Shown: one piece after another, positions 16,801-59,521 of the stretch | Position numbering within the stretch: position 1 is the first letter of the stretch | Layout: every line of letters starts with the position of its first letter | NCBI GenBank assembly: GCA_977017645.1 | Contig: OZ360221.1 | Location: forward strand, 120,962,001 to 121,026,000 | Direction of reading: 5' to 3' | Origin: Torpedo marmorata | Taxonomy: Eukaryota | DNA: 64,000 nucleotides | Made by a program: the position numbers and the translations under genes | Notes under the pieces: generated by a model | The model's input: the letters and a program-made list of their open reading frames with translations, nothing else | What the model was told of the DNA's origin: nothing | The model's database searches: none

Positions 16801-18140
16801 GACCTTTAATGTTGTTGAAAGATCAGTCAGTTAATGAGGATGTACAGTTAAATTTGTTAGATTATGTTTCAAAGTTCAAAGATCATTTACAGAAGGTCTG
16901 TCAGATAGCTGAGGAGAATTTTAAAATGGCTCAAGATGATATGAAGGTTTGGTATGACAGAAAAGCCAGAGAGAGAATTTTTAAACCAGGGGATAAAGTG
17001 TTAATTCTTTTTCCAACAATTTCTAATCCTCTCAGAGAAAAATTTTCACGACCTTATGAAATAGAATCTAAGGTAAATGAAGTTAATTATGTGGTTAAAA
17101 CTCCTGATAGGAGATGTAAAACACAGTTGCCACGTTAACATGTTAAAACCTTATTTTGAGAATTTGGATGTCAGCCAGAAGCAGCCTTCACCAGAGGTAT
17201 TGGTTGTGGAGAAAATTGAGGCGGTTATGGATCATGAGACCATACAAGCTGATTCTTGTGAGAGTCATTTTAAAGAGAATATTGTTACAGTTTGTTTACT
17301 TAATTCAAGTATATTGGAAGATTTGGATGAGAAGTTGGCTCATTTGAAACCTCAGGAAAAGGAACAAATAGGACAGTTGATTTTAAAATACAGAAATTTA
17401 TTTCTGGATGTGCCACAGATCGCTTGCCATGATGTTGATGTTGGAGATGCAAATCCTATCAAATAGCATCCATATAGAATGAATATTGAAAATTGTAAAT
17501 AGGTAGATCAAGAGATTGAGTACATGTTAAAGAATGATATTATTAGACGTTCTACTTCAGATTGGAGTTCACCTTGTGTACTGGTACCTAAATCAAATGG
17601 GACAGTTAGATTTTGCACTGATAATAGAAAAGTTAATGCAGTGACAAAAACAGATGCTTATCCTATCCCGAGGGTGGATGATTGTGTGGATAAGATTGGA
17701 AAAGCTACCTTTCTTACAAAAATAGATTTATTAAAGGTAACAGAAAGAGGAATGGAAATTTCATCCTTTGTAACCCCATCGGTTTTATATGAGTACAATG
17801 TTTTACCATTTGGAATGAAGAATGCTCCAGGAACATTTCAAAGGATGATTAATTCTGTGACTCAAGATTTAAAACATGCAGATGCTTATATTGACGACTT
17901 GGTTACAGGGAATGATACATGGGAAGAACACATCTCTGCTTTAGAGAAATTGTTTGATAAACTTTTGAAAGCCAATCTTACTGTTAATTTAGCTAAAAGT
18001 GAATTTTGTCATGCTAAGGTGACTTATCTTGGTTATGTTGTTGGCCAAGAAAAAGTGGCGCCTGTTCAAGCTAAAGTTTAGACAATTATTGAATGTCTTG
18101 TACCCACGAGTAAGAAAGCTGTGAGGAGATTTTTAGGCTT
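16801..18140 (+). mobile_element. Gmr1-like Ty3/Gypsy pol fragment (integrase upstream of RT), no LTRs
   Basis: Integrase C-terminus (WYDRKARERIFKPGDKVL..RPYEI..HVNMLKPY) directly precedes RT (WSSPCVLVPK..RFCTD.RKVNAVT..DAYPIP..YIDD). The IN-before-RT order is diagnostic of Gmr1 elements. Confidence 0.82.
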
Positions 18141-18228
18141 ATGTGTCTAAGAAATTCAATCAACACCAAAACAATTATTCTACTATTGAAAAGTAATTAT
18201 TGTCTCTTGTATGGGCTTTGCAACACTT

Positions 18229-21200
18229 CAAAAAAAATTTATTTAAAATTTTAAATCACTCGATAATACATATTATAAAATGCAAAATTATCAAAATACA
18301 TGTGATATATTTTCACCCCCCCCTCCCTCCCTCCCCTCCCTAATCCTCCCACCNNNNNNNNNNNNNNNNNNNNNNNNNNNNNNNNNNNNNNNNNNNNNNN
18401 NNNNNNNNNNNNNNNNNNNNNNNNNNNNNNNNNNNNNNNNNNNNNNNNNNNNNNNNNNNNNNNNNNNNNNNNNNNNNNNNNNNNNNNNNNNNNNNNNNNN
18501 NNNNNNNNNNNNNNNNNNATGTCAATCTAAAAAAGAACAACTATAAACTAATTTTATTGTGGAACATAGGTTCGCCAGTCAGATCTGATATCCAGAGATC
18601 TTCAAATCCATATTTTCAAAAAGAACTGATATTTGTTACGTGAATTATAAGTAATTTTTTCAAGTGGTATAGCTGAACGAAGTTCTGCATGCCATCTCTC
18701 TAACCCTAAATCTACATCAGATTTCCATGTAATAGCAATGCATTTCTTAGAAACAGCTAAAGCAATTTGCAAAAATTCTATTTGATACATATTTAATCTC
18801 ATCTTAATACTAATTCTTTTAATATCTCCTAACAGAAATATCATAGGATCCATTGGGAGTGTATTTCTTAATACTTTGTCTAAAAACTTTTTAACTTTCA
18901 ACCAGAAATCATATATCATTGGACAAAGCCATGTAGAGTGTACAAAAGAACCTTCCTCTCTATTACATCTAAAACATAAACCTGATAATGTCGTCTTAAA
19001 TTTCTTTAATTTCTTAGGTGTTAAATATAATTGATGTAAAAAATTATATTGCACCAACCTATATCTAACATTAATAATCTTCGTCATACTTTGTTTACAT
19101 ATTTCTTTCCAATGTTCCTCATCTATCGTTACATTCAAATCTGATTCCCATTTTAATCTTGATTTATGAATTCCTAATTTAAGCATTTTCCTCTATAACA
19201 ATCTATATATTTGAGAAATACATTTATTTACATCTCCATTAGTAACTAATAATTCCAATTCACTTTGTCTTGGTAAAGTCAAACTATAACCCAACCTTTC
19301 AACTAAAAATGCTCTAATTTGATAATAAGCAAAAAGTGTATTATTTAATACATTAAACTTCTCTTTCATTCTTTGAAAAGTAATAAATTTACTAGCTTCA
19401 AAACAATCATTTATTTTTTTAATTCCTTTTTGGAACCAAATTTTAAATAATTGATTATCAATAGTAAATGGAATAAGTTTATTTTGATATAAAGGCATTT
19501 TTCGAGAAATTAACCCTTTCCCTCCTATCTCCCTATCCACTTTATTCCATATTTCTAACAAATTTTTTAAAATAGGAGAGTTTTCACCTCCTCTTAATAG
19601 TAATTTAGAATTCCATTTATAAATAACTTCTTCTTTCAAATCTTCTTCTATATTATTTAGTTCTATTCTAATCCAAGCAGAAGATTTTCCTAAATCAAAC
19701 ATTTCATTAATACATTTTAATTGAGCTGCTTTATAATAATTTTGAAAATTGGGAAGTTGTAAACCACCCATTTCGTAATCCCAGGTTAATTTCTTCATAC
19801 CTACTCTAGCCAACTTTCCTTTCCACAAAAATTTCCTAATAATTAAATTTAAATCTTTAAAATATTTTTGAGGAATTTCATAAGGAATTGATTGAAAAAG
19901 ATATTGAATTCTTCGAATAACATTCATTTTTATACAATTTACCCTTCCTATTAAAATTATAGGTAAATCGTTCCAACTTTCTAAATCTTTTTTAATATTC
20001 ATAAATAATTGTAAATAATTTAAGTTATATAAATTTGCTAATTTTGTATGTTTTTATTCCCAAATATTTAATTCCATAATTTGACCATTTAAATCGTGTC
20101 ATTTCTTTACATTTATTATAATCTCCTTGTGTCAATGCCATAATTTCACTTTTATCAGAATTAATCTTATAACCAGATATTTCCCCATATTCTCTCAATA
20201 AAACATTCAGTTGTGTTAAATAAGTAATAGGTTTTGTCATGTAAATCAATACATCATCTGCAAATAAACTAATTTTATGTTCTTCTTTTCCAACTTTAAT
20301 ACCTACAATCTTAATATCTTTTCTAATTAATTCTGCTAAAAGTTCTATTGCTAGAATAAACAATGTTGGCGACAAAGGGCATCCTTGTCTAGTTGACCTC
20401 GTCAACAAAAATTTTGAAGAAATTTGTCACCACTCTGGCAGAGGGTTCTTTATATATAGTTTTAATACAATTAATAAATGTAGTTCCAAAACCAAATTTT
20501 TCCAATACCTTAAATAAATAATTCCACTCTAATCTATCGAAAGCCTTTTCGGCATCTAATATTAATATTAATGCTAATTCTTCTTTCTTTTGTGCCACAT
20601 TTATTAAACTAATTAATCTAGCTATATTAACTTTTGAATATCTATTCTTAATAAAGCCTGCTTGATCTACATGGATTAAATCTGGTAAATATTTAACCAC
20701 TCTATTTGCTAAAATTTTTGCCATTATCTTATAATCGACATTTAGCAATTAAATTGGTCTATATGATTCTGTTTTCAACAAATCTCTATCTTTTTTAGGT
20801 ATAACTGTTATTATTGCATTTGAAAATGTTTCCGGTAGAGAATGAGTTTCCGTTATTTGTTTTAACACCTCCATATATGAAGGTATCAATAAATCTTTAA
20901 ATTCCTTATAAAATTCTGATGGGAAACCATCCTCCCCCGGAGATTTTACACTTGTTAAAGAACTAAGAACATCATTAACATCTCTCATCGTAAACAATGA
21001 ATCTAAAAGTTCTTTACTTTGAATATTTAATCTGGGTAACTTAACTTTAGATAAAAATTCATTAATTTTAGAATCATCTTTATCAGTTTGAGATTTATAT
21101 AAATATAGATAAAATTCCTTAAAATAATCATTTATTTCTCGTGGTTTATATGTTATTTTCTTTGAATTCTTTTTTATAGCACTTATAGTTCTAGAAGTTT

Positions 21201-24143
21201 GTTCTTTCTTTAATTGCCACGCTAACACTTTATGAGCTCTTACTCCCAATTCATAATATCTTTGCTTAATTCTTTCAATTAATTTTTCCATTTTATATGT
21301 TTGTAACGTATCATTTTTTTTCGATTAAATTCTCCCTCTTTTCGTCTGATCTCTTTTGCAAATCCTTCTTCAAAAACTCGATCTCCTTCTCCAAATTATC
21401 CAATTCCTGAATATATTCCTTCTTAACTTTTGCTGAATAACTTATTATTTGACCTCTTAAATAAGCCTTTAGAGCTTCCCAAATAATAAATTTATTGTCA
21501 ATCGAATTAGAATTAATCTGTAAAAATTCTTGAATTTTTCTTCTTATATAATTACAAAAATCCGTTCTTTTCAATAAAGAAGAATTAAATCTCAATCTAT
21601 ATATAATTTTTTCTTTTTCTGGAATTATACATGACATTAATAGAGGTGAATGATCAGAAATTATTCTTGCTTTATATTGTGCTTGTGATGACAATAAAAA
21701 CATGTCTATTCTAGAATAAGAATCATGTCTAAAAGAATAAAAGGAATAATCTTTTTCTCTTGGATTCAACTTCCTCCAAATATCTATTAAATTTAAATCT
21801 TTCTTCAAAGTAAGAATTATTTTAGCAGTTTTAGTTCTGATAGTTGATTTTGATGTATTATCCATTATTGGATCTAAACAACAATTAAAATCCCCACCAA
21901 TTAAAATATTATCATTTGCTTCTGACAAGTGCATAAAAGAATCTTGAATAAATTGTTCATATTCCGTATTTGGCACATATATATTCATGAGTGTCCACAT
22001 TTCTGAATATATCTGACAATTTATTAAAACATATCTTCCTGACACATCTATAACCACAGATTGTATTTTAAAAGGTAACTTTTTATTAATTAATATAGCA
22101 ACTCCTTCTGCTTTAGAATTAAATGAAGACGCAATCACTTGACCAACCCATTCTCTGTTCAACTTCTGATGTTCTATATCTGTCAAATGTGTCTCCTGTA
22201 AAAAAGCTATAATATATGCTAAAGTTTTCTTCCTTTTAATCGAATTATTTAGCCCATTTATATTAATACTTACTACATTTATTAATTTACTATCCGCTAT
22301 TTCTAATATTTAATAACTCTCTCTCCATCAGACCTACCGGTTCCCCCTTCCACATTTGTAATCTATTTGACATCTCCTTAGAAAGAAAAATAAAAAAAAG
22401 AAAAAGAAAAAAAAAACTAAAAAACCCACTATATTTAATACTGGTATAATTACCCCAGTACTACCCCCCTCCATTGTTCGGGAAGTGGCCCTCGCCACTA
22501 AGGTGATGTGTGACTAGGTACGGAGAAGACAAAAAGTCCACCCCCCCCAACAGATTTTACACAACATTTGTTATCATTTCTTCATCCAGCTTCTTCGAGA
22601 TCTCTGTTAGCTTGATCCTCATCCATTTCGACCCCATCTTCTTGTCCTGAGACTCTTGGTGAGTCGGTACAATAACTTGAACTTGAATTTGCCCCATCAA
22701 ATCTTGATCTTTCTTTAATTTCAGAAGTGAATTTGCATGCTCCAAAGCTTCTTTATAATCAGTAAAAAAGAATGACTGATTGTCTGCAGACTGAACCTTC
22801 AATGTCGCAGGACATCTAAACGAAAATTTATATCCTTTACTGCAAAGTATTGCTCTCGCTGGGTTAAATTCTTTTTGTTTTTTAATTATTACTGCGCTTA
22901 GATCAGCATAAAAAATACCCTATTTTTATTAATTATCAATGGACTCTGGTTCATTCTAGCATTTTGAACAGCTAATTTCAGTATCTTCTCTTTATCCTGG
23001 TATCAAAAACATCTGATTAACACTGAACGTGGCCTTTGTCCAGGATACGGTTTTTTTCTGCTATCTCTATGGGCTCTATCTAATTCCAGTCCATATGGAA
23101 AGTGATCAGTACCCAAACCTTGTGGAATCCACTCTTGAAAAAATTTAGTTATGTTCACCCCTTCAAAGTCCTCAGGCAATCCCACGAGTTTAACATTATT
23201 TCTCCGACTCTGATTTTCCAATACATTTATTTTTTGTAAAAGTTCATTTCTTTGTTGCTCCCAACCTGTAAATGAGTCTTCCACTTTTTCTACTCTGTCT
23301 TTATATTACACCATTTCTTCATAGTGCTCTTTAACATCATTTTCAAATTTCTGGACTTTCGATATTACTTTATCCACAGTATTTGTATGTTTTCCCATAT
23401 CTTGCTTCATGTCTCTCATTTCTTCTTCAATTCCATTAAATCTAAATTCCATGTGTTGATTCATCTTTGACACTTGTTTTGTTAAATTGTCCATAGCTTT
23501 AATCAAAGTCTCTGATATTTCCTGTTTAGCCTGTGGTAATTGAGCCTCTTCTCCACTTAGTCCTTCATCCTCTCCCTCTATTTCTTCTATTTCTTCCTCC
23601 ATTTCTTCATCTTTCTCTCTCTTTTTGTCTTCTGAATCTGTTGATGATAAAAATTCCTGTCCCACATCATATTGAAATGATTGAAGGGCTCTTCTTTTGC
23701 CGTCAGCCTTAGCTGACAGCTCCCGTTCTCTATCGCGCATGCGCACCATTTCGCGCATGCGCGATCACTCACTTTCAGATTGTAGTTCTTTAGTCTTCTT
23801 TCGAGCGCCAGCGCCATCTTACCCAGCTCCCCGGGAGGACAGCGCTGGCGCGGAAGTTACCTTAAGCGTCTTTGTCTGCGTCTTCCTGGGAGGGAGAGAA
23901 ACTTGAGCCCAAGGCTCCATCGAAAAGTTAGGCCGATCTACCTATTGAATTAAACTTTCCTGAAACACTACTTTTTTTGCCTTTTGTTCCTTTCCTTTTC
24001 TTGTAGTCATTGTTGAATCATTAATAAACAATCTTAACTTTTTTAAATAACTAAATAAAGTTTTTTTAAACAGGTTTTAATTAATTCTGTAGGGAGAGGT
24101 GTATTTCCACGTCTCCAACCTATACCATCACGCCACACCCCCC
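18229..24143 (-). mobile_element. Full-length (~5.9 kb) decayed L1-clade LINE copy C: ORF1 ~24010-22557, ORF2 ~22300-18602
   Basis: 15-bp TSD GGCTTTGCAACACTT at 18214-18228 and 24144-24158. ORF1 has LENQSRRNNVKLVGLPE..ELDRAHR; ORF2 has APE (IGGDFN, SRIDMF, SDHSP) and RT (TRQGCPLSP, LFADD). Several stops and frameshifts. Confidence 0.93.
18354..18518. other. Assembly gap (165 N) in the G-rich 3' UTR of L1 copy C
   Basis: Run of N. Confidence 0.99.
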
Positions 24144-32493: not shown

Positions 32494-33214
32494 AATCTGT
32501 CAAATATCTCTGAGGTTCACATCTATGAATTATTTTGGGATGCATTAAACTCAGGTTTGCAGGTAAACTGCTTATTTTCTTTATCTTTTATCATTCTTTT
32601 AGTAATCATCAAAATGCACACAATTCTGTTAAAGATCAAGGCACTTTTTTCTCACACTTTTTTCTTACATATCTTTTACACACACCCATGTGTGATGAAA
32701 ACTGCTGGTCTGAGATTTACATGCTACTCTTCTTATACTGACTGGGAGGTCTGAGCATGTCACAGGTCAGAGGATACAAGCAGGGACTAAGGAAAGGAGG
32801 TAAAGGAAAACGTTGAATTTAGGAGTGCAGGATTAGAGACTGAAATTTGAAATGTATACAATGTAATTGTTTGTAGCAGAAAAACCAGTTGAGGAGGAAT
32901 AAAACCAGGATGCACTAAGCAGAAGATATGCAACTGAATGGAAATACTCAGGCAAGATATGCTGAACCATGGGGTTGTGAATAATTTGAAAATTGGCATC
33001 CTCAAAAGTCCTGGAAGAAAGAATAGGGTGATGGAACAAACAATGAGAAGTTGAAGGGTTTTGGCAGGTCAGGCTTCATCCACGGAGAAGAAATCGACAG
33101 TCAATGTTTCAGGTCAGGACCCTTACTCGAGACTAAAGTTGGAGACAGTAAGCATAAAAAAGGAGAACGTGGGTGGGAGAAGGGCTAGGAATAGGTCAAA
33201 ACATAATTGGTTGG

Positions 33215-36200
33215 TGATACGCCCATCAATACTCCAAAAGAAAAGAAGTTACACAAGAACTGAAAGGCTTTTATTAGCTACAGAATGGATCTACATTCGT
33301 GCTGGTGATCTGTCCCGGACTGAGGGAGGAGTTGTGGCACAATGGCCTTTTTTCAAGGGGGGTAGTGGGAGGAGCCACCGGGACAGTCAGCAGGGCATGT
33401 CCAAACCTATCACCAGCCCACAATACATATATAGTGGTTTACCACATTCACCCCTCCTTTTAAAAGAGTCCAGCGGGGTGAAGTGAACACTAACAACACA
33501 TCTAAAATATATTACAGTCACAGATCGAGTCGATCAGGCGGTCGAGTCTGACGTCGTGATCGGCCCAGTACTTGTGGTGATGGGGCAGGCGGCGGAGCCA
33601 CCTCCTGCCTGGTTTGGGGTACCGGAACGTCAGGTGACGGCGAAAGTGCTGGTGAGTGTGGTGTCGTGTTGGGATCGAATGGTGCGTCTTGTGTTTGCAC
33701 AGGGGTAATCGTAACAAGGGGGTGTTCGAGGGCGGGTTCCGGTGCTCCTGCGGGCGCCAGGTCCCGGATGGAGACGGTGTCTTCCCGCCCATCAGGGAAG
33801 ACCACGTAGGCGTACTGGGGGTTGGCATGAGCTAACTGGACCCTCTCAACCATTGGGGCGTATTTATTGCTCCTAATATGTTTGCGGAGCACAATATGGC
33901 TGGGGACGTCAGCCATGCTGGTAGGGTAGTCCCGGTGGTCGACTTCCTGGGGAAAGAAAAGAGTCTTTCATGAGGAGTCGCATTGGTGGACGTACATAGC
34001 AGGGATTGGATGGAATGGAGGGCCTCGGGAAGAACTTCTTGCCAGCGGGAGACTGGTAATCCCTTAGACCTGAGGGCTAAGAGAGTGGCCTTCCAGACCG
34101 TGGCATTCTCCCTTTCCACCTGTCCGTTACCCCGAGGATTGTAGCTCGTGGTCCTGCTAGTGGCGATACCCCTGGCCAGCAGATATTGTCGCAGCTCGTC
34201 GCTCATAAAGGAGGACCCCCGGTCGCTATGGATGTAGCAGGGGAAACCAAACAGGGTGAAGAGTTTGCGGAAAGCTCTGACAGAGGTGGCCGAGGTATCG
34301 GGGCAGGGAATGGCGATAGGGAACCGCGAGTACTCATCAATAACGTTGAGGAAGTACACGTTGCGGTCGGTGGATGGGAGGGGACCCTTGAAGTCGACGC
34401 TGAGTCGCTCAAAGGGGCGGGTCGCCTTAACTAGCTGTGCCCTGTCAGGGTGGTAGAAGTGCGGTTTGCACTCCGTGCAGACCTGGCAGCTGCTGGTCAT
34501 CGCCCTGACCTCTTCTAGGGAGTACGGTAGGTTACGGGCCTTCACAAAGTGAAACAGCTGGTAACTCCGGGGTGGCAGAGGTCACAGTGGAGGGCCTATA
34601 ACCGGTCGATCTGTGCGCTAGCGCACGTCCCCCGGGATAGAGCATCGGAGGGCTCATTGAGCTTCCCGGGCCGGTACATAATATCATAGTTGTAGGTGGA
34701 GAGTTCGATTCTCCACCTCAGGATTTTGTCGTTTTTGAATTTACCCCGCTGCTGATTGTTGAACATGAATGCGACTGAGCGCTGGTCAGTCAGCAGGGTA
34801 AACCTTTTGCCGGCGAGATAATGCCTCCAGTGCCTGATAGCTTCCACTATGGCTTGGGCCTCTTTCTCCACCGCGGAGTGCCGAATTTCTGGGCCTTGAA
34901 GGGTACGGGAGAAGAACGCCACCGGTCTTCCCGCCTGGTTGAGGGTAGCAGCCATTGCGAAGTCGGACGCGTCACTCTCTACTTGGAAGGGAGTGGACTC
35001 GTCCACCGCGTGCATTGCTGCTCTGGCAATGTCCCCTTTTATGAGGTCGAAAGCCTCACGTGCCTCCGCTGCAAGGGGAAAAGTGGTGGACTTGACTAGG
35101 GGGCAGGCCTTATCTGCGTAGTTAGGGACCCATTGGGCGTAATATGAAAAGAAGCCCAAGCACCTTTTGAGGGCTTTCAGGGTGTGGGGAAGCGGTAGTT
35201 CCAACAGGGGGCGCATGCGGTCGGGGTCGGGGCCGATGACCCCGTTCTCCACAACACACCCCAGGATAGCAAGTCGGGTGGTCCCGAACACGCACTTATC
35301 CTTGTTGTAGGTGAGATTAAGTGCTTTGGCCGCCTGGAGGAACTTCCGAAGGTTGTTGTCGTGGTCCTGGCAATCGTGACCGCAGATAGTGATATTGTCC
35401 AAGTACGGGAAGGTGGCTTTTAAATTGTACTGGTCCACCATCCTGTCCATCTCCCTCTGGAAGACGGATACCCCATTTGTGACCCCAAAGGGGACGCGCA
35501 GGAAATGATAGAGCCTGCCGTCCGCCTCGAAGGCGGTGTAAGTGCGGTCCTCTCAGCGAATGGGTAGCTGGTGGTAGGCAGACTTGAGGTCTATGGTGGA
35601 GAAGAGCTTATATTGTGCTATCTGGTTAACCATATCCACAATGTGTGGCAGGGGTTACGCGTCAAGCTGCGTGAACCTATTGATAGTCTGGCTATAATCC
35701 ACCACCATTCTATTTTTGTTCCCATTCTTCACGACGACCACCTGGGCCCTCCAGGGACTTGTGCTCGGTTCAATGATCCCCTCCCCAAGTAATCGCCTCA
35801 CCTCTGACTTGATGAATGCCCTGTCCCCTGCACTATATCTCCTTCCCCAGTCCGGGACAGATCACCAGCACAAATGTAGATCCATTCTGTAGCTAATAAA
35901 AGCCTTTCAGTTCTTGTGTAACTTCTAGTCTTTTGGAGTTATTGATGGGCGTATCAATTTTATTAGCTACACTGTAAATATGGAGAGCATTCTGAGACCA
36001 GACAAACTGGACATCGACCCGCAAGCATCGGACAGCAGTAACGCCTTCGAACTCTGGCTAGTCTGCTTTGAGTCGTTCCTACAGGAGATCAAGGTGCGGG
36101 ACGACGCGGAAAAACTCAATGTCCTCCTCTCTAGGGTAAGCCCACGAGTTTACTCAATGATCCACGACTGGCAGACCTACGAGGAGGCGATGAATGCACT

Positions 36201-37767
36201 GAAACGTCAGTATATACAGCCTGTGAACTCTGTATACGCGAGGCACAGGCTAACGACGCGGCAGCAGCGGCCCGGGGAGTCGATCGCAGAGTTCGTACGG
36301 GCCATACAGACACTCGTGCGGGCGTGTGACTGCAGGGGGCTGACGGCTGAGCAGCACGCAGAGCTGCTAGGAAGAGACACCTTTGTCACGGGGATCAGGT
36401 CAGTGTACGTGCGCCAGCGACTGCTGGAACATGCTGACCTGACCTTCCGTTCGGCGATTGAACTGGCCAACACGCTGGAGGCCGCGCTTCAGAACTCGGA
36501 CGCTATTCAAGTGCGCGATCTCCAGCAGGCCCCGTGGATGCCACCGACCCCCCACCCTACTAGCGACTCGACTACCGCCGCCATCAGCCGCAACCCCGAG
36601 AAATGCTATTTCTGCGGGCTCGAGAAGCACCCCCGAAAACGTTGCCCGGCCTGCGAAGCGACCTGCTCCAGCTGCGGTAAGAAAGGCGACTTTGCCAAGG
36701 TCTGCCGCTCAAAGCCGAGAGCGGGTTCGAGCAGTGCCGCGTGCGAGACTCGTCTTCTGTGCCGTCACTTCCGCTGCCGTCCTACCCACCCGCCGCTGCC
36801 AACACGTGCGAGGAATGGGGGCAGCCATCTTGGGCCTCGTCACTTCCGGCGCCGCCATCTTACCGACCCGACGCTTCACTTCCGGCGCCGCCATTTTACC
36901 GTCCCGGCGCTAACACGTGCGATCCATGGGGGCGGCCATCTTCTTCCGCGCCGGCGAGCCGACACTGGGTGCCGCCACCCCGGGACAGCGGCCACTCCAT
37001 CGCGACGTCGGATCAAGACAGCGACCTTACACTGGCGTCAGTGACACTCGACCAGAGTGCACCCCATCAACTATCGAGGTCAATGATGGACATTCTGGTC
37101 GAGGGACACAGGATAAACTGCCTGTTCGACACAGGCAGCACTGAGAGCTTTATTCACCCCGACACAGTGCAGCGATGTGGCCTCGCGACACTGCCGGTAA
37201 GCCAAAGGGTTGCCATGGCTTCCGGGTCGCACACAACAGACATCCGGGGGGGTTGTGTGGCGATGATAGTAGTACAGGGCACGGAATACCGGGACTTCAC
37301 ACTATTGGTCATGCCCCGACTGTGTGCCCCTGTACTACTGGGCCTCGATTTCCAGAGCCACCTCCAGAGCGTTACCATGAAGTATGACGGGCCCCTCCCA
37401 TCGATTACCGTCGGTAATCACCAGTTCCTCAAAAACACACCCCACACTACTTGGGGTCTATCCACCCTCAAGATCCCGCCCCCGTCGCTATTCGCCAACC
37501 TGACCTCTGACTGTAAACCTGTACCTAATAAAATTGATACGCCCATCAATAACTCCAAAAGACTAGAAGTTACACAAGAACTGAAAGGCTTTTATTAGCT
37601 ACAGAATGGATCTACATTCGTGCTGGTGATCTGTCCCGGACTGGGGGAGGAGTTGTGGCACAATGGCCTTTATTCAAGGGGGGTAGTGGGAGGAGCCACC
37701 GGGACAGTCAGCAGGGCATGTCCAAACCTATCACCAGCCCACAATACATATACAGTGGTTTACCACA
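33215..37767 (-). mobile_element. Ty3/Gypsy LTR retrotransposon copy 1 with an internal inversion
   Basis: LTRs 33215-33446 (3') and 37535-37767 (5'), TG..CA; 5-bp TSD GTTGG (33210-33214 and 37768-37772). RT/RH/IN on minus (33518-35843); R-U5-gag-PR on plus (35844-37522). Confidence 0.93.
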
Positions 37768-38542
37768 GTTGGAGAGACAGAGTGATAGACAGGGGAAGAG
37801 GCCATGTGGGGAAACAGGGGGTGGGGGAGTGGAATGGTGGGGTTGAGAGAAAGTCAGACTGGAGCAGATCATGGACAGATGGAAACAGTGGAACCAGAAT
37901 GATGTTGGGATACACTATTTGGTTTTATGCTACCTAAGTGGACTATAGAATGTGCTCCTCAAGTTTACATTTGGTCTTATTTAATTGTAGTTTTCTTTAT
38001 AGTTTATACTTCATCTTTGTAACACTCTACCCTGCACCCTTTGACTTACTTTAAGACTACACCATGCACTTTTATTATACTATTGCAATACCTGCTGTAC
38101 TTAAGAATGGGTTGACTTGCCTGGAAAGCAGGCAGATGTTCAGTTTCTCAGTACACTGACAATAAACAAATTCAATTAGAAGAAGCAATTGATCTTGCAA
38201 ACTTTTCTCAGCCTCAAACTATACCAATCTGCTACACAACCAACATTCATGTTGCAGTCAATGGACAAAATCTATATACAGTGGAGTTCCAAAAACATTA
38301 ATGAGATTAGTGGCTAAATATCCCTTTACATTGGTCACAGAATAAGTAATGGCTAAGATACCAAAATGCTATGCTCGCCCCCAAATCTTTTAGCTCTCTT
38401 GGAACTGTTTGATAGGAGGTAGCTGTAACAAATTTATCCCCAAAAAAAAACATTTTTTTTCTGGTTCAAGGGGAAGAGACGTTGCACTCCCAAAAATAAT
38501 TATTTCTCTGCTACAAACAAAAATCAAGTGCTCAATTTTTTG

Positions 38543-38781
38543 TTTAGAGATACAGCACAGTAACAGGCCCTTCCAGACCAAGAGCCACACTGCCCAATTG
38601 CACCCACATGACCAATTAACCTGCTGACCCTGTAAATCTTTGGAATGTGGAGGAAACCAGAACACCAGTCACGGGAAGAAAGTATAAATTCTTTAAAGAC
38701 AGTGGCGGATTTGGACCTGGGTTGCTGGCGCTGCGCTGCAACAGCGTATTGCTAATCACTAACCACAACGCTAACCATGCG
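38543..38781 (-). mobile_element. Degenerate V-SINE (HE1-like)
   Basis: Alignable by eye to 32246-32493. Confidence 0.75.
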
Positions 38782-40834
38782 GAATCACAAGTCTTCAGTT
38801 CTCACTATGCACCAAGCATATTTCACGAGACCTTATTCAATGCAGTAAAACAGCTATTGCTGAAAAAAACACATTTTTTAGAAGCAAATAATACAAGAAT
38901 AATGTCAAATTGCCATACATCAATTCCTGCCAACTATTTTTGCTGTAGTCTAAAATAAATGAGCAATTCCAAATTTCTAATGGCCAAAGATAATCTTTAT
39001 CCTATTTCTAGATAGAACCATAGAACACTATAGTACAAAAAACAGGCCATTCGTCCCTTCTAGTCTGTGCCAACCATTATTTTGCTAGTCCCATTGACCT
39101 GCTCCCATTCCATAACCCTCCAGACCTCTTCCATCCATGTATCGATCCAATTTATTCTTAAAACTCAAGATCGAGCCCGCATTCACACCAGATGGCAGCT
39201 CAATCCACACTCCCACCACTCTCTGAGTTTAGAACTTTCCCCTAATGTTCCCCCTAAACCTTTCCCCTTTCATCTTAAAACTATGACCTCTCGTATTTAT
39301 CTCCCCCAATCTAAGTGGAAAAAGCCTACTCGCATCCACTCTGTCTATACCTCTCATAATCTTGTAAACCTCTTTCAAATCTCCCCTCATTCGTCTTCGC
39401 TCCAAGGAATAAAGTCCTAACCTGTTTAATCTTTCCCTATAACTCAACTCCTGGAGACCTGGCAAAATCCTAGTAAATCTTCTCTGCACTCTTTCAATCT
39501 TATTGATATCCTTCCTGTAGTTAGGTGACCAGAACTGCACACAATATTCCAAATTTGGCCTCACCAATGTCTTAAACAACTTCAACATAACATCTCAACT
39601 CCTATACTCAATACTTTGATTTATAAAGGCTAAGATGCCAAAAGCTTTCTTTACAACCCTGTCCACCTGTGACGCCACCTTCAGGGAACAATGTATCTGC
39701 ATTCCCAGATCTCTCTGCTCCTCTGCACTCCTCAGTGCCCTACCATTTACTGTGTACGTCCTACCTTGGTTTGCCCTGCCAACATGCATCACCTCACACT
39801 TGTCTGCATTAAACTCCATCTGCCATTTTTTGGCCCATTCTCCCAGTTGGTCCAGATCCCTCTGCAAGCTTTGAAAATCTTCATCGCTGTCCACAGCGCC
39901 TCCTTTCTTTGTGTCATCAGCAAATTTGCTGATCCAATTTACCACATTATCATCCAGATCATTGATATAGACAACAAACAACAATGGTCCCAACACAGAT
40001 CCCTGAGGCACACCAGTCACAGGCCTCCAGTCTGAGAAGCAACCATCCACCACTCTCTGTTTTCTCCCACACACCCAATTACGAATCCAGTTTACGACCT
40101 CTCCATGGATACCTAGTGTCATAACCTTCTGAACTAACCTCCCATGTGGGACCTTGTCAAAGGCTTTACTAAAGTCCATGTAGACAACATCCACAGCCTA
40201 TCCTTCATCTACCTTCTTGGTAACCTCCTCGAAAAACTCTACAAGATTCATTAAACATGACCTACCACGCACAATGCCATGCTGACTGTCCTTAATCAGC
40301 CCATGGCTGTCCAAATACCTATATATCCTATCTCTCAGAATTCCTTCCAATAATTTACCTACTACTGACGTCAAGCTCACTGGCCTATAATTACCTGGTT
40401 TATTTTTGGAACCTTTTTTTAAACAACGGGACAACATGAGCTACCCTCCAATCCTCTCGCACCTCACCCGTGGCTAAGGACATTTTGAATATATCAGCCA
40501 GGGCCCCTGCAATTTCTACACTAGTCTCCCTCAAGGTCCGAGGGAATATCATATCTGGACCGGGTGATTTATCTACCTTTATTCGCTGTAAGGCAGCAAG
40601 CACCTCTTCCTCCTTCATCTCCATATGTTCCATGACCCTTCTGTTTGTTTCCCTTCCTTCCTTATGCACAATGCCAGTTTCCTGAGTAAATACTGATGCA
40701 AAAAAAAACTGTTTAAGATCTCCCCCATTACGTGAGGGTCCATACGTAGTTGACCTCTTTGATCCTCAAGGGAACCAATTTTGTCCCTTACTATCCTTTT
40801 ACTCTTAATATACTTATAGAAACCCTTCGGGTTT

Positions 40835-43800
40835 TGTGGTAAACCACTGTGTATGGATTGTGGGCTGGGTGATAAGTCTGGACATGCCCCTGCTGACTGT
40901 CCCGGTAGCTCCTCCCACAGATCCCCTTGAATAAAGGCCATTGTGCCACTGCCCCTCCCCCAGTCCGGGACGGATCATCAGCACGAATGTAGCTCCATTC
41001 TTTTGCTAATAAAAGCCATTCAGTTCTTGTGTAACTTCTAGTCTTTTGGAGTTATTGATGGGCTCATCAATTTTATTAGCAAAATTGTAAACATGGAGAA
41101 CATCTTGAGACCAGACAAACTGGACATCGACCCACAAACACCGGAAGCTGGCAATGCCTTCGAACTCTGGCTAGTCTGTTTTGAATCATTCCTGGAGGAG
41201 ATCAAAGTGCAAGAAGACGCCGCAAAAAGCAAGATCCTCCTCTCCAGGGTAAGCCCTCGAGTCTACTCTATGATCCGAGATCTACAGACTTATGAGGATG
41301 CAATGAATACCCTTAAAAGACAGTACATACGGCCTGTGAAAACTGTGTACGCAAGACACAGGCGAGCGACGCGGCAGCAGCGGCCCAGGGAGTCGAGCGC
41401 GGAGTTCGTACGGGCCCTACAAACACTCGTGCGGGCGTGCGACTGTCGGGGACTGACGGCTGAACAGCATGCAGAGCTCCTCGTGAGAGACGCTTTCGTT
41501 ACGGGGACCAGGTCAGTGTATGTGAGCCAGCGGCTGCTGGAACAGGCTGACCTTACCTTCCGTTCCGCGATCGAACTGGCCGACACGTTGGAGGCCGCGC
41601 TACAGAACTCGGATGCTATCCAGGCGCGCGATCTCCAGCAGGCCCCGTGGATGCCGCCGACCCCCCACCATACCAGTGAATCGACCACTGCCGCCATCAG
41701 CCGCGAGCCCGAGAAATGCTATTTCTGCGGGCTTGAGAAGCACCCGCGGAAAAGTTGCCCGGCCTGAGAAGCGACCTGCTACAGCTGCGGGAAGAAAGGC
41801 CACTTCGCTAAGGTCTGTCGATCTACACCGCGAGCGGGATCGAGCAGCGCCGCGTGCGAGACTCGGGGGCGGCCATCTTGTGTGTCGTCACTTCCGTCTC
41901 CGCCATCTTACCTACCCGCCGCCGCGGCCAACACGTGCGAGGTATGGGGGCGGCCATCTTGTGTTTCGTCACTTCCGTCGCCGCCATCTTACCTACCCGC
42001 CACCAACACGTGCGAGTCATGGGAGCGGCCATTTTGTTCCACGCCAGCGAGCCGACACAGGGTGCCACTATCCCGGGACAGCAGGCACTCCATCGCGACG
42101 TCGGATCAAGACAGCGACCCAACGTTGGTGTCAGTTACACTCGACCAGAGTGCACCCCACCTACTCGCGAGGTCGATGATGGACATTCTGGTCGAGGGAC
42201 ACAGGACAAACTGCCTGTTCGACACAGGCAGCACAGAGAGCTTCATCCACCCTGACACGGTACAGCGATGCGGCCTCACGACACAGCCGGTAAGCCAGAG
42301 GGTTGCCATGGCTTCCGGGTCGCACACAACAGACATCCGGGGGGGTTGTGTAGCGACGATAGTGGTACAGGGCACGGAATACCGGGACTTCACGCTATTG
42401 GTCATGCCCCGACTGTGTGCACCTGTACTACTAGGGCTCGACTTCCAGAGTCACCTCCAAAGTGTGACTATGGAGTATGACGGGCCCCTCCCACCGATTA
42501 CTGTCGGTAATCACCAATTCCTTAAAAACGGCAAGAATATTTTGTCACCCCACACTACTTGCGGTCTATCCACCCTCAAGATCCCGCCCCCATCGCTATT
42601 CGCCAACCTGACCCCTGATTGTAAACCTGTGGCAACCAAAAGCAGGAGATATAGCGCAGGGGACAGGGCATTCATTAAGTCAGAGGTGCAGCGGTTACTT
42701 GGGGAAGGGATCATCGAGGCGAGCACAAGTCCCTGGAGGGCCCAGGTGGTTGTCGTCAAGAACAGGGACAAAAACAGGATGGTGGTAGATTATAGTCAGA
42801 CCGTCAATAGGTTCACGCAGCTTGACGCGTACCCCCTACCACGCATTGCAGATATGGTAAATCAGATAGCTCAGTATAAGCTTTTCTCCACCATAGACCT
42901 CAAATCTGCCTACCACCAGCTCCCCATTCGCCGGGAGGACCGCCCCTACACTGCCTTCGAGGCGGACGGCAGACTCTATCATTTCCTGCGCGTTCCCTTT
43001 GGGGTCACAAATGGGGTTTCCGTCTTCCAGAGGGAGATGGACAGGATGGTGGACCAATGCAAATTAAAGGCCACTTTTCCATACTTAGATAATATCACCA
43101 TCTGCGGTCACGACCGCCAGGACCACGATAACAATCTTCGGAAGTTCCTCCAGGCGGCAAAAGCGCTTAACCTAACCTATAACAAGGATAAGTGCGTGTT
43201 CCGAACCACCCGACTCGCTATCCTAGGGTGCGTTGTGGAGAACGGGGTCATCGGCCCCGACCCCGACCGCATGCGCCCCCTGTTGGAACTACCACTTCCC
43301 CACACCCTCAGAGCCCTCAAAAGGTGCTTGGGCTTCTTTTCTTACTATGCTCAATGGGTCCCTAATTACGCGGACAAGGCCCGCCCCCTTGTCAAGTCCA
43401 CCACTTTTCCCCTTGCAACGGAGGCACGTGAGGCTTTCAGCCTCATAAAAGGGGACATTGCCAGAGCAGCAATGCACGCGGTGGACGAGTCCACTCCTTT
43501 CCAAGTAGAGAGTGACGCGTCCGACTTCGCACTGGCTGCTAACCCTCAACCAGGCGGGAAGACCGGTGGCGTTCTTCTCCCGTACCCTTCAAGGCCCAGA
43601 AATTCGGCACTCAGCGGTGGAGAAAGAGGCCCAAGCCATAGTGGAAGCTATCAGGCACTGGAGGCACTATCTCGCCGGAAAAAGGTTTACCCTGCTGACT
43701 GACCAACGCTCAGTCGCATTCATGTTCAGCAACCAGCAGCGGGGTAAAATCACAAATGATAAAATCCTGAGGTAGAGAATCGAACTTTCCACCTACAACT

Positions 43801-45274
43801 ATGATATAATGTACCGGCCCGGGAAGCTCAACGAGCCCTCCGATGCTCTATCCCGGGGGACGTGCGCTAGCGCACAGATCGACCAGTTATATGCCCTCCA
43901 CTGTGACCTCTGCCACCCCGGAGTCACCAGGCTTTTTCACTTTGTGAAAGCCCGTAATCTACCGTACTCCCTGGAAGAGGTCAGGGCGATGACCAGCAGC
44001 TGCCAAGTCTGCGCAGAGTGCAAACCGCACTTCTACCATCCTGACAAGGCACAGTTGATAAAAGCAATCCGCCCATTTGAGCGACTAAGCGTCGAATTTA
44101 AGGGCCCCCTTCCCTCCACCGACCGCAATGTGTACTTCCTCAACGTTATTGATGAGTACTCGCGGTTCCCTTTCGCCATTCCCTGCCCCGATACCACGAC
44201 CACCTCAGTCATGAAGGCCCTCCGCAAACTCTTCACGTTGTTTGGATACCCCTGCTATATCCATAGTGACCGAGGGTCCTCATTTATGAGTGACGAGCTG
44301 CGACAATATCTGCTGGCCAAGGGTATCGCGACTAGCAGGACCACGAGCTATAACCCACGGGGTAATGGACAAGTGGAGCGGGAGAACGCCACGGTCTGGA
44401 AAGCCACACTCTTAGCCCTCAGGTCTAAGGGATTACCAGTCTCCCGCTGGCAAGAAGTCCTTCCCGAGGCACTCCACTCTATCCGATCCCTGCTGTGTAC
44501 ATCCACCAATGCTACACCTCATGAGAGACTCTTTTCCTTCCCCAGGAAGTCAACCACCGGGACTACCCTACCAGCATGGCTGACGTCCTCAGGGCCAGTG
44601 CTGCTCCGGAAACATGTCAGGAGCAATAAATACGCCCCGATGGTCGAGAGGGTCCAATTATTACACGCGAACCCCCAGTACGCCTACGTGGTTTTTCCTG
44701 ATGGGCGGGAAGACACGGTCTCCATCCGGGACCTGGCGCCCGCAGGAGCACTGGAACCCGCCGCTGCCCTCGAACACCCTGTAGTTACGGTTACCCCCTT
44801 ACCTACCATTAAGGACACACAAGAGGCACCACCCAATTCAAACACGACACCACACGCACCAGCATATTCATCTGAGGTTTCGCCAGACATGCCGGTACCC
44901 CAGATCAGGCAGGAGGCAGCACCGCCACCTGCCCCATCACCACAAGTACTGCCTGATCGACTCGATTTGTAATTTTAATCTCTTGTAAATATTGTTATAC
45001 ACTTCACCCCGCTGGACTCTTTTAAAAAGGAGGGGTGAATATGGTAAACCACTGTGTATGGATTGTGGGCTGGGTGATAAGTCTGGACATGCCCCTGCTG
45101 ACTGTCCCGGTGGCTCCTCCCACAGATCCCCTTGAATAAAGGCCATTGTGCCACTGCTCCTCCCCCAGTCCGGGACAGATCATCAGCACGAATGTAGCTC
45201 CATTCTTTTGCTAATAAAAGCCTTTCAGTTCTTGTGTAACCTCTAGTCTTTTGGAGTTATTGATGGGCTCATCA
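40835..45274 (+). mobile_element. Full-length Ty3/Gypsy LTR retrotransposon copy 2 (4.44 kb)
   Basis: 235-bp LTRs at 40835-41069 and 45040-45274 (6 differences counted by eye); 5-bp TSD GGTTT; polypurine tract AAAAAGGAGGGGTGAA immediately before the 3' LTR. Confidence 0.96.
41093..44972 (+). pseudogene. Single gag-pol ORF of Gypsy copy 2 (Gag with two CCHC knuckles, PR, RT, RNase H, IN) carrying three lesions
   Basis: Stop at 41765, +1 frameshift at ~43540, TAG at 43773. Motifs CYFCG..H....C, CYSCGKKGHFAKVC, LFDTGS, YLDN, SDAS, HPG..C..C, IHSDRGSSF, GNGQVER. Confidence 0.9.
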
Positions 45275-46644
45275 GGTTTACCTTCACATTATCTGCCAAA
45301 GCAACCTCATGTCTTCTTTTTGCCTTCCTGATTTCCTTCTTGAGTATTTTCTTGCATTTTCTGTACTCTTCAAGTACCTCATTAGCTCCTTGTTGCCTAT
45401 ACTTGCTATACACCTCTCCCTTCTTCTTAACCAGATCGCCAATATCCCTTGAAAACCAGGGTTCCCTATGCCTGTTAACTTTGCCTTTAATCCTAACAGG
45501 AACATGCAAACTCTGCACTCTCAAGATTTCACCTTTGAAGGCCTTCCACTTACTTAACACACCCTGGCCAGAAAACAACATATCCCTATCCACTCTTCCT
45601 AGATCCTTTCTCATTTCCACAAAATTTGCCTTCCTCCAATTTAGAATCCCAACATGAGGATCAGACTTATCCTTTTCCATAATTAACTTGAAGTTAATTA
45701 CATTATGGTCACTAGACCCAAAATGTTCACCTACACATACATCTGTCACCTGACCTGTCTTGTTTCCTAATAGGAGATCAAGTATTGCATCCTCTCTTGT
45801 TGGTACCTCTATATATTGATTTAGAAAACTTTCCTGAACACATTTCACAAACTCCAAGCCATCCAGCCCTTTTACAGTATGGGAGTCCCAGTCAATATTC
45901 GGAAAGTTAAAATCTCCTACTATCACAACGTTCTGCTTCTTACATCGGTCTGCTATCTCTCTACAGATTTGCTCCTCCAATTCTCTCTATTGGGCGGTCT
46001 ATAATACAACCCTATCAGTGTGGTCACACTTTCCAGTTCCTCAGCTCCACCCATATGGCCTCTGTAGACAAACCCTCCTGGCTGTCCTAACTTCACACAG
46101 CTGAGATATTTTCCCTGACTAGCAATGCCACTCCTCCCCCTTTTATCCCTCCCCCTCTATCACGTCTGAAGCAACGGAACCTCGGAACATTAAGATGCCA
46201 GTCCTGCCCCTCCTGCAACCAAGTCTCACTAATAGCAATAATGTTGTAATCCCACGTGTCAATCCATGCCCTAAGCTTGTCAGCCTTTCTAACAATACTC
46301 CTTGCATTAAAATAAATACACCTGAGAAAATGTCTATCACGTACAAACCTTTGATTTCTGTCTATACATGCACTGGACTTCAGATGGCAGCTACTCACGT
46401 GGATTATGAGATTTTGTTTATCCAGTTGCATTTGGTCTCTCCACAGCAATGGAGAAGGCCGAGGGCAGATTGATAAAGGAGAAGGAAGGAGAATTACAAT
46501 GACATGCAACCGGAAACTCTTGATTGCTATTGTAGACAAAGCTCAGGTGATCTCCAACACGATCACCTTGTCTGCATTTAGTTTCTCCAATGTAGAGCAG
46601 TTAAATCCGAGCTCTCTACTCAGTAGTGTTAAGAAGTAAATCAC

Positions 46645-58572: not shown

Positions 58573-59521
58573 TGTTGTGTGTGGGGGAGGCTCCTTGCCT
58601 ATTGCTAGTGGTCACGTGGCCTCCCCGCCTGAAACTCATTCGGAAGTCACACCACCTGTCAGTACATGGTGTACTTTTTGTTCCGCTCAGTTACAAAATT
58701 ATAGACAAAGTTACAAATTGCAGGTGGAATGCCAGTTAAGAGTGGGCTCAGACCACTGGTCAGTGCACACCTTGCCATTGGCTGGTTCAAAACACTCAGC
58801 GTCCTTATTGGCTAGAGCCCTGTATTTAGCACCAGCACAGAGGACACTCTCTCTCTCTGCCTTGTGGTGATAGCCCCGGACACTGCTCCATGCCAGGTCG
58901 CTACCAGACGTCGCTTGGAAGTGTCGCGGGTAAAATGCACTCTGCACTGAAGCTGAGCCGTGGTATTGCTATAGCTCAAATGACTATAGATCAATACTGG
59001 CAGTAGAGCCGCCGCTCTCAACTGATCAGGGGTCCGAGAGCGTGAGTATACCCCTGTGGGTACAGTGGTACCAGATCCACCTCTCAACTGATCAGGGATC
59101 CGAGAGTGTGAGTATACCCCTGTGGGTACAGTGGTACCAGATCCACCTCTCAACTGATCAGGGGTCCGAGAGCGTGAGTATACCCCTGTGGGTACAGTGG
59201 TACCAGATCCACCTTCCCTTATTCAGGGATCCGGGAGGTTGTGCATAACCCCTGCTTATAGGATGTGCATTAAAAATTGTGTACTGTTTGACGTTCTCCC
59301 CCGTTTGTTTCCCGTTATGGTCTGTTCCCACACTCCCTTATAAATTGTGTGTGCGTATGTTCCCACACTCCCTTATAAATTGTGTGTGCGTATGTTCCCA
59401 CGCTCCCTTATAAATTCTCTCTTATTAATTGTGTTAATAAAGTTACATTTGATTGCAAACCCTTGTGTCCAGACTCGTCTCTCTTTGAACCCACTGAACC
59501 TGACACTTTCTCAACAAAACA
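58573..59521 (+). repeat. 5' LTR (~950 bp) of an endogenous retrovirus, containing 3x66-bp (59015-59212) and ~2.7x35-bp (59323-59416) tandem repeats
   Basis: TGTTGTG...CAAAACA termini, AATAAA at 59436, PBS immediately after. The start is inferred because no 3' LTR is in the window. Confidence 0.72.

Follow-up and report, generated by a model that had tools for sequence, protein, structure and literature searches.

The locus raises the question of how a retrotransposon copy with two outer LTRs and one pair of TSDs came to carry gag and protease antisense to pol, next to a third, partial LTR. It lies in the window, the whole 64,000-nucleotide stretch of Torpedo marmorata DNA that was analysed, and is referred to here as copy 1; a colinear relative is copy 2. 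Our reading is that copy 1 is probably one Ty3/Gypsy element that integrase inserted after its cDNA had been rearranged in the course of reverse transcription.

Architecture and insertion of copy 1

The features of both copies are listed in Table 1. BLAST comparison of the window with itself divides copy 1 into two blocks: 33215–35843 aligns in reverse to 45274–42644 of copy 2, and 35841–37522 aligns forward to 40954–42630. The outer LTRs are direct repeats of each other, and 35839–35971 is an inverted copy of 37652–37520. Thirteen nucleotides of copy 2 (42631–42643) have no counterpart in copy 1; the same 13 nt also turn up in runs X2 and X4, where they form loose ends at 35843/37522. With this gap, and with microhomologies of 5 nt at junction A and 3–4 nt at junction B, copy 1 has a geometry of the twin-priming type. 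Base 35844, next to the junction A microhomology, is private to copy 1. The original prediction had described two intact outer LTRs with a GTTGG TSD, an antisense block inside them, a 13-nt loss relative to copy 2, microhomology at both junctions and a breakpoint at the end of the primer site. These are borne out by our comparison: the inner block reads LTR(116–233)-PBS-gag-PR, junction A shares CTCCT, junction B shares TGT at 37520–37522 (CTGT with the LTR-derived primer as reference), and breakpoint B falls on the final base of the self-complementary 14-nt PBS. With gag-PR antisense to pol, copy 1, if rearranged before insertion, would have been non-functional from insertion on; it has no evident function.

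Table 1. Positions of the features of copy 1 and copy 2 in the window
Feature	Positions	Strand	Remarks
Left TSD, GTTGG	33210..33214	.	Single GTTGG at the empty site, run X1 record 1
3′ LTR of copy 1, 232 nt	33215..33446	-	Holds all 5 substitutions and the 1 gap separating the outer LTRs, with copy 2 as reference
Polypurine tract (PPT)	33447..33461	-	Same tract present in copy 2
Sense pol (RT-RNase H-integrase) and 3′ tail	33462..35843	-	Interrupted by stops and frameshifts
Junction A, CTCCT, 5-nt microhomology	35839..35843	.	Common to pol (copy 2 42644–42648) and LTR 116–120
Inner inverted partial LTR (LTR 116–233)	35839..35956	+	By sequence comparison
Inner copy of putative self-primer (LTR 165–178, spans AATAAA)	35888..35901	+	
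Inner PBS, 14-nt perfect complement of putative self-primer	35958..35971	+	
Inverted gag (two zinc-knuckle motifs) and protease, to PR/RT boundary	35980..37522	+	
Junction B, 3–4-nt microhomology, last bases of outer PBS	37519..37522	.	
Outer PBS	37520..37533	-	One private substitution relative to inner PBS
5′ LTR of copy 1, 233 nt	37535..37767	-	Putative self-primer 37603–37590; GAATAAA 37675–37669
Right TSD, GTTGG	37768..37772	.	
Copy 2, colinear, sister subfamily, TSD GGTTT	40835..45274	+	Stops and frameshifts; comparison reference
Cryptic complement of copy-1 PBS tail in copy 2	42628..42641	+	10 Watson-Crick and 1 G-U of 14

Run X1 record 1, a contig from another run, joins 33209 to 37768 and represents the empty site with one GTTGG. 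The short TSD flanking copy 1 on both sides, present once at the empty site, is that of an integrase-type insertion. Among the contig pieces listed from other runs, only an empty allele appears at the GTTGG site. None of the 32 listed pieces, with 85,910 more beyond the listing, spans junction A or junction B, as would fit an assembly or read chimera; the sole run with both flanks has the empty site. Such an artefact is very improbable, given that the inner segment duplicates neither LTR (it has two private changes, and the outer PBS has one), that both junctions lie on functional landmarks and that the flanks agree with the empty site.

Between the inner and the outer R-U5-PBS 3 of 128 sites are different, and the outer LTRs differ from each other at 5 of 232 sites plus one gap. 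By this measure the inner R-U5-PBS and the outer LTRs appear to be of the same age within error, a comparison of low power. The LTR test also has little power, as none of the changes in the 5′ LTR is private and thus available for sharing with an inner copy. A test on shared derived sites was rejected: at each of the four sites where the inner copy sides with the 5′ LTR and not with the 3′ LTR, copy 2 has the same base, and these sites are therefore ancestral and uninformative. Copy 2 diverges from copy 1 by 7.7–15%, and the inner R-U5 differs from it at 10 of 113 sites, indicating that the inner R-U5 belongs with the outer LTRs. This grouping speaks against nesting, in which a second family member would have inserted antisense and later undergone deletions, an idea for which the high copy number of the family and the second copy 3 kb away could be cited. 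The inner and outer parts also complement each other to within 13 nt, and there is no inner 3′ LTR, the LTR search of the 64-kb window having returned five matches, all assigned. The original prediction had named an inner TSD, or an inner segment of a different subfamily than the outer LTRs, as the marks of nesting; neither was found, and nesting is exceedingly improbable.

Complementarity of PBS and LTR, and lineage

In both copy 1 and copy 2 the PBS pairs perfectly over 14 nt with a segment of the LTR, with two compensatory changes between the copies. PBS-LTR complementarity of 13–19 nt is present in 14 of 19 related loci and covaries across distant relatives. The covariation, between copies and among relatives, indicates that the element family is probably self-priming, without a tRNA. 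No published description of self-priming in the non-chromoviral double-knuckle Gypsy lineage of copy 1 was found, a weak absence as subscription literature and Repbase lay mostly outside the scope of the search. A tRNA-Gly called by ARAGORN at 34631–34723 was treated as spurious; it lies antisense in the RNase H coding sequence, and Rfam gives no matches in 33000–46000.

The putative primer starts at LTR 165, 44–49 nt downstream of break A (LTR 116–121). Tf1 uses the first 11 nt of its RNA as self-primer (PMC7175516). The proposal that the break at 35844 maps the RNA 5′ end is not supported, since the break lies about 45 nt upstream of the self-primer, whose counterpart in Tf1 forms the RNA 5′ end; break A is only a lower bound on template reach. 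The break does lie about 30 nt past GAATAAA, as originally stated (LTR 93–99 versus 116–121), whereas its label as a transcription start is an interpretation. In related LTRs no TATA at a constant distance from the putative primer is evident by eye. Break B, from which the primer length was to be read, bounds that length to 12–15 nt and does not fix it, because the switch may fall anywhere within the microhomology. A tail of 12–15 nt would place the primer 5′ end near LTR 165.

The order gag, PR, RT, RNase H, IN between TG...CA LTRs with a PPT, which copy 2 shows and copy 1 retains piece by piece, is that of Ty3/Gypsy, and the best solved match for the element is Ty3 RT (E 1.6e-36). A chromodomain at the integrase C-terminus is absent in copy 2 and in six of six relatives. 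The RT motif YxDN occurs in 103 of 120 cases and a double zinc knuckle in 69 of 72 proteins of at least 1,100 aa. Two zinc knuckles in Gag are a feature of Gypsy's Mag lineage; the element shares it, and the likeness concerns this one feature. No named reference sequence for an RT-RH-IN tree (Mag, SURL, CFG1, Gulliver or Hydra2-1) is among the relatives found, and no relative occurs among viral contigs. The architecture of copy 1 recurs at 0 of 87 related loci; three loci match in both orientations, which in two cases reflects adjacent elements and in the third (L036) a rearrangement of another kind.

Origin of the inversion

The PR/RT breakpoint coincides with the best non-LTR complement of the copy-1 PBS in copy 2, which ranks first of 4,424 14-mers by match count. 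Among the 63 sites that share its 3-nt terminal match it is likewise first (P = 0.006 for at least 7 of the other 11), although these statistics were chosen after the junction was seen. The duplex energy of −7.8 kcal/mol (RNA parameters) is unremarkable, 11th of the 15 separate sites listed. The site, absent from the earlier reading, is read from copy 2 and the X2/X4 loose ends, not from the parent of copy 1. Its footprint spans the junction B microhomology and 11 of the 13 nt missing from copy 1, which suggests that the apparent deletion roughly marks where a plus-strand strong-stop tail annealed at the wrong place, as in twin priming. A different use of the site, as a long self-primer cut from the RNA at PR/RT and copied by the plus strand, predicts pol-type letters after the 5′ LTR; all four diagnostic positions there are PBS-type, and this reading was rejected.

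From the structure of copy 1, its TSD, the PBS-LTR complementarity and the cryptic site we infer the following series of steps. LTR 165–178 would pair with the PBS and be cut to a primer of 12–15 nt, and minus-strand DNA would transfer to the 3′ end and enter pol. The PPT would then prime plus-strand strong-stop DNA (U3-R-U5-PBS), the PBS tail of which would anneal to its best RNA look-alike at the PR/RT boundary instead of the minus-strand PBS. The tail would be extended toward the 5′ end of an uncut, 5′-extended RNA, through PR, gag, PBS and U5 into U3. The annealed tail and RNase H would end the minus-strand template at most 2 nt from the tail footprint. Finally, the two nascent strands may pair via CTCCT and be completed, giving two full LTR ends acceptable to integrase. 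The core of this scheme, in which a strong-stop tail mis-primes at PR/RT, copies back and joins a stalled minus strand, was part of the original prediction and is strengthened by the cryptic PBS complement and the covariation.

Several observations count against an origin in reverse transcription. There is one copy only, with none of the listed pieces across its junctions, and the 10/14 pairing is weak compared with the 14/14 primer hybrid. The template must reach at least 44 nt upstream of the primer, requiring a non-standard RNA. The Tf1 self-primer is reportedly not removed, going by the title of one paper.

A genomic inversion after insertion could have arisen from staggered breaks at LTR 116–121 plus the PBS end and at PR/RT, or from two replication template switches, joined by microhomology. 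Staggered-break inversions yield an inverted duplication of 46 bp to 1.9 kb at one breakpoint (PMC1885836), a duplication of flanking sequence, and the earlier argument that a genomic inversion would not duplicate R-U5-PBS fails on this point. The microhomology and the 10/14 match fit DNA template switching as well, and within L036, a degraded relative, gag is inverted in a different pattern, indicating that such changes occur in the lineage. We nevertheless regard a genomic inversion as unlikely: it leaves unexplained why a break should fall on the final base of the PBS (about 4 of 1,898 ends that would serve equally well) together with a footprint-sized loss, and it would have to have closely followed insertion, as the inner-outer divergence is not lower than that between the LTRs. 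The ages are equal within error, with low power.

Reverse transcription could also have followed another order or used DNA, with the stalled minus strand first folding back on U3 via CTCCT, or with the strong-stop tail priming on displaced plus-strand DNA of a sibling cDNA. A DNA template would reach U3 without a 5′-extended RNA (break at LTR 116–121, primer at 165). These variants leave the resumption of pol at most 2 nt from the tail footprint unexplained and require more template switches, and we consider them quite improbable.

With mis-priming on RNA as our preferred reading, a fuller account can be offered tentatively. Copy 1 may be a fossil of twin priming that took place in the particle of an LTR retrotransposon: plus-strand strong-stop DNA would have primed synthesis in the minus sense at a cryptic PBS complement on RNA, and the lost bases would be the primer footprint. 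Its Gypsy lineage, which is non-chromoviral, has a double knuckle and is widespread in aquatic animals, would prime itself without tRNA, as an origin of self-priming apart from Tf1/sushi and TAR. If true, strong-stop DNA can use its PBS tail to prime on RNA with integrable cDNA as the outcome, twin priming extends from L1 to LTR elements, and inverted proviruses gain a testable route. An origin in reverse transcription also predicts a recurrent, subfamily-specific junction that could be counted in one genome. Copy 1 is a lone dead copy that is instructive as to mechanism; the covariation found along the way, which points to priming without tRNA throughout a broad Gypsy lineage of animals, may be of more consequence.

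Comparison with known systems

No published precedent for the architecture of copy 1 was found, a weak absence as subscription literature lay mostly outside the scope of the search. Defective HIV-1 proviruses with inversions and autointegration inversion circles would share with copy 1 an internal inversion of retroelement cDNA before or at integration (PMC9278108, PMC7197481). Autointegrants are circular, and each of their junctions has a complete LTR, whereas the inner LTR of copy 1 is partial and both outer ends are intact; for the HIV inversions the passages on HIV offer no mechanism. The three-LTR complex insertions of Sabot and Schulman share with copy 1 one TSD, two matching outer LTRs and extra LTR sequence inside, and are attributed to abnormal template switching. 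There a whole third LTR joins two complete internal domains in tandem, in contrast to the partial inverted LTR and the one domain in two orientations of copy 1 (PMC1950507).

As in Tf1/Tf2, Tj1, sushi, Tcn1 and TAR, the PBS just after the 5′ LTR complements an LTR segment and lacks a tRNA-type TGG start (PMC7175516, PMC4600332, PMC6317226). Those elements are chromoviruses or plant Copia, whereas the lineage of copy 1 has no chromodomain (0/6 relatives), mostly a YxDN motif in RT and a double zinc knuckle, with a primer that is putative.

The closest geometry is that of 5′-inverted L1 insertions formed by twin priming, in which another DNA 3′ end pairs within the RNA and is extended toward its 5′ end, the two cDNAs are joined by microhomology, and an inverted 5′ block precedes a sense 3′ block (PMC2912911). 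L1 is a non-LTR, target-primed element, and both of its primers are cut target DNA (PMC2912911). Copy 1 is an LTR element with integrase ends and lacks the traits of L1 proper (target priming, endonuclease-cut primers, a poly(A) tail and a non-LTR structure). Its second primer would be its own strong-stop DNA, and it was inserted by integrase with a 5-bp TSD.

Architecture of the rearranged copy

The window contains two copies of one Gypsy family, with gag, aspartic protease, RT, RNase H and integrase domains and neither an env nor a chromodomain among the domains of the element. Its nearest named relatives are proteins of rays and sharks (90% for Mobula, 83–86% for Hypanus and Scyliorhinus), which makes a cartilaginous fish the probable host. 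Comparison of the rearranged element (copy 1) with its colinear relative (copy 2) shows that the originally predicted structure, a copy with an internal inversion between its two LTRs, a GTTGG target site duplication (TSD) and 13 nt missing, is real. The missing nucleotides correspond to copy 2 positions 42631–42643. Junction A (35839–35843), where pol meets LTR positions 116–120 of the inner block, has a microhomology of 5 nt, and junction B (37519–37522), between the end of the outer PBS and the PR/RT boundary, one of 3 nt, or 4 nt if the LTR-derived primer is taken as the reference. The neighboring base at junction A, 35844, is private to copy 1; it may have been miscopied at the junction or have mutated later.

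Features of the two Gypsy copies and of other elements in the window
Feature	Position	Strand	Description
Copy 2	40835–45274	+	colinear; TSD GGTTT
Copy 1	33215–37767	-	rearranged element; TSD GTTGG at both ends
Copy 1 5' LTR	37767–37535	-	first block in element sense
Copy 1 outer PBS	37533–37520	-	second block in element sense
Copy 1 antisense block	equals copy 2 from 42630 down to 40954		protease, gag and PBS, then LTR positions 233–116
Copy 1 sense pol	copy 2 42644 on		followed by PPT and 3' LTR
Imperfect tandem repeats	36753–36942, 41853–42037		both copies, between zinc knuckles and protease; copy 1 reading frame shifts within 36753–36942
tRNA-Gly (ARAGORN)	34631–34723		likely spurious; antisense within the coding sequence of RNase H and unsupported by Rfam
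L1/Tx1-like cluster	11669–21318		pieces of 2–2.8 kb, 85–89% alike
RT fragment	17503–18081		within the L1/Tx1-like cluster
Tandem repeat	59015–59254		66-nt unit, ahead of the open frame
Open frame	59762–61327		521 aa, resembling gag of another retroelement

Elsewhere in the window lie further pieces labeled L1-like, CR1-like, REX-like and hAT-like, an assignment that, like the L1/Tx1 label, goes by motifs.

Of five public runs, none recorded as RNA, four were compared with the window, all as contigs. In run X1, one contig of 1,095 nt matches 32900–33209 and 37768–38100, contiguous in the coordinates of the record, and represents the empty site with one GTTGG, confirming the TSD of copy 1. With 13 differences in 643 nt of flank, X1 stems from a different individual or from a sister species. 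This flank difference of 2.0% is near the LTR–LTR divergence of 2.2% (window 32900–38100), and the insertion, absent from X1, is a marker that tells close lineages apart by its presence or absence. In two contigs of X1, 35843 is connected to 37522 with the strands opposed, and the 13 nt missing from copy 1 are present in loose ends of runs X2 and X4 with one base variable; both represent the normal family arrangement. Neither junction A nor junction B is spanned by any of the contig matches listed for the four runs. The inner segment, the outer PBS and the 3' LTR carry two, one and six private changes of their own, respectively, indicating that the inner block is not a duplicate of either LTR; this speaks against an assembly artefact, a very improbable reading.

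Divergence amounts to 5 of 232 sites and one gap between the outer LTRs, 3 of 128 sites between the inner and the outer R-U5-PBS, and 10 of 113 sites between the inner block and copy 2. This places the inner block in the same subfamily as the outer LTRs, with an age about that of the insertion; these values fit both an origin at the reverse transcription stage and a rearrangement soon after insertion, because the 5' LTR has no derived change that a later duplicate could share. A nested insertion, which would bring in the inner segment separately, is regarded as the least probable reading. The six outer-LTR differences (33215–33446) are all private to the 3' LTR, which may reflect chance, gene conversion between inverted repeats or two parental templates.

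A cryptic PBS complement at junction B

All 4,426 14-mers of copy 2 were ranked by how well they complement the PBS of copy 1. The top ranks are held by two LTR segments, and the next best site, 42628–42641 (10 Watson-Crick pairs and one G-U, the three 3'-terminal bases being paired), is the site of junction B. It is the sole site with at least 10 pairs and a 3-nt terminal match and ranks first among the 63 sites sharing that match (P = 0.006 for at least seven matches among the remaining 11 positions), as computed after the fact from the sequence of copy 2 and other runs, not that of copy 1's parent; by duplex energy it is only 11th among the 15 sites listed (-7.8 kcal/mol, RNA parameters). 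Of the 13 lost bases, 11 lie beneath the cryptic site and pol restarts 2 nt past it, so that the loss roughly matches what a PBS tail annealed there would cover. The site is part of a coding motif that is conserved (the KSRxYS pattern matches in 52 of 120 proteins), and its likeness to the primer of the subfamily is thus an accident of sequence; like the energy rank, this counts against priming at the site. Likeness to the LTR primer segment extends through two bases past the A run (12/16 over 42628–42643), stops exactly at the end of the lost 13 nt and mimics the putative cleavage context.

The priming step of the original prediction is therefore better supported than its author knew, and we consider it likely that the inversion formed during reverse transcription by priming at the cryptic site. 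The self-primed minus strand would advance into pol, and the strong-stop tail would anneal to the cryptic site of an uncut RNA packaged in the same particle and be extended toward the 5' end of that RNA. The minus strand would exhaust its template at the tail footprint, and the two nascent strands would pair through CTCCT, so that the finished cDNA has both LTR ends intact. A caveat for this mechanism is that the Tf1 primer is reportedly not removed, going by a 2006 title of Atwood-Moore et al. It is standard for a particle to hold two RNAs and for transfer to take place between molecules (PMC6894440, PMC9278108). A different order of events, or a DNA template, during reverse transcription appears improbable. 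A genomic staggered break or template switch is unlikely, yet more plausible than the other alternatives. The duplicated R-U5-PBS, previously held to be beyond the reach of a simple genomic inversion, is not decisive alone, because staggered-break inversions do give inverted duplications (46 bp to 1.9 kb, often at a single breakpoint; 17 of 29 Drosophila inversions) (PMC1885836). At 1,898 of 4,427 element positions a landing site of the same quality exists on the opposite strand, so nothing would lead a switch at the DNA level to begin at the PBS end, whereas plus-strand strong-stop DNA necessarily ends there (PMC7197481). The structure is real and is probably a fossil of reverse transcription.

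The proposal that break A maps the RNA 5' end fares worse than first thought, as the primer starts at LTR 165 and break A lies at 116–121. In Tf1 the first 11 nt of the RNA serve as the self-primer (PMC7175516). A 44-nt unpaired 5' extension of the primer would leave a strong-stop tail unable to pair at the second transfer, and the tail at junction B is 12–15 nt, which puts the most likely start of the working RNA near LTR 161–167; an Inr-like motif starts at LTR 159. The inverted block was most likely copied from a longer uncut RNA, or from DNA. Such an RNA may have been initiated further upstream, close to the Inr-like motif at LTR 124–130, or have come from read-through. This motif lies ~30 nt after GAATAAA, a weak coincidence given four such motifs in the 233-nt LTR.

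Probable self-priming in the family and its relatives

The PBS, the 14 nt that follow the LTR end, is a perfect complement of LTR 165–178, which spans the second AATAAA. Copy 2 departs from copy 1 at two positions of the LTR segment and likewise at two of the PBS, with pairing kept at 14/14, and the predicted leader fold includes the helix between segment and PBS. Among 87 related loci, 45 are 4 kb or longer, and 25 with a flanking direct repeat were picked; six were dropped for repeats within coding sequence (L003, L057, L081) or for lack of a complete LTR end or PBS (L036, L045, L072). A perfect 13–19 nt PBS–LTR complement, matched by none of 500 shuffles, was found in 11 of the 19 remaining loci, several of which are copies from one assembly and so not independent. 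Three more (L009, L047, L073) have a 16-nt complement overlooked by the search pattern, giving 14 of 19 with L001, L002, L005, L049, L050, L054, L055, L060, L063, L066 and L067; the other five (L030, L044, L051, L061, L079) have short or interrupted matches only. The PBS of the 14 loci is of a non-tRNA type. By eye the 19 loci form about six LTR families with differing primer sequences, at 55–66% best-segment identity to the window RT-RNase H. In nearly all, the primer segment has an A run at its end followed by GCC or ACC, 35–65 nt from the LTR end. Taken with the two window copies, these loci give strong sequence evidence for priming independent of tRNA, with putative cleavage of the primer, and the 14 loci point to putative lineage-wide self-priming outside the chromoviruses.

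One dropped relative, L036 (2548–3354), is degraded, with TSD GGAGG, a truncated 5' LTR and a lost PBS, and has two adjacent in-place inversions within gag, a rearrangement unlike that of copy 1. Seven relatives (L081–L087) lie on contigs filed under bacterial genome records and are probably animal DNA carried into bacterial assemblies.

Relation to known systems

The double knuckle in 69 of 72 proteins of 1,100 aa or more and the YxDN motif in 103 of 120 are reminiscent of the Mag lineage, a putative placement. Plus-strand transfer to wrong sites gives rise to deletions in retroviral vectors. A literature search, with Repbase entries, older virology papers and supplements outside its range, found no report of the copy 1 architecture and no description of self-priming in this lineage; the accessible text of PMC6238403 and PMC5445492 holds nothing on the primer of this lineage, and in that of PMC3601003 hairpin priming comes up for some chromoviruses alone. 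Self-priming is known for Tf1/sushi, Tcn1 and TAR (PMC6317226). Inverted proviruses of HIV-1 number two in the set of PMC9278108, and autointegration yields inversion circles (PMC7197481). Grass elements with three LTRs and one TSD are attributed to template switching, and there a whole third LTR is common to two complete elements (PMC1950507). The route proposed for copy 1 works like the twin priming of L1, but is not of the L1 type (PMC2912911).
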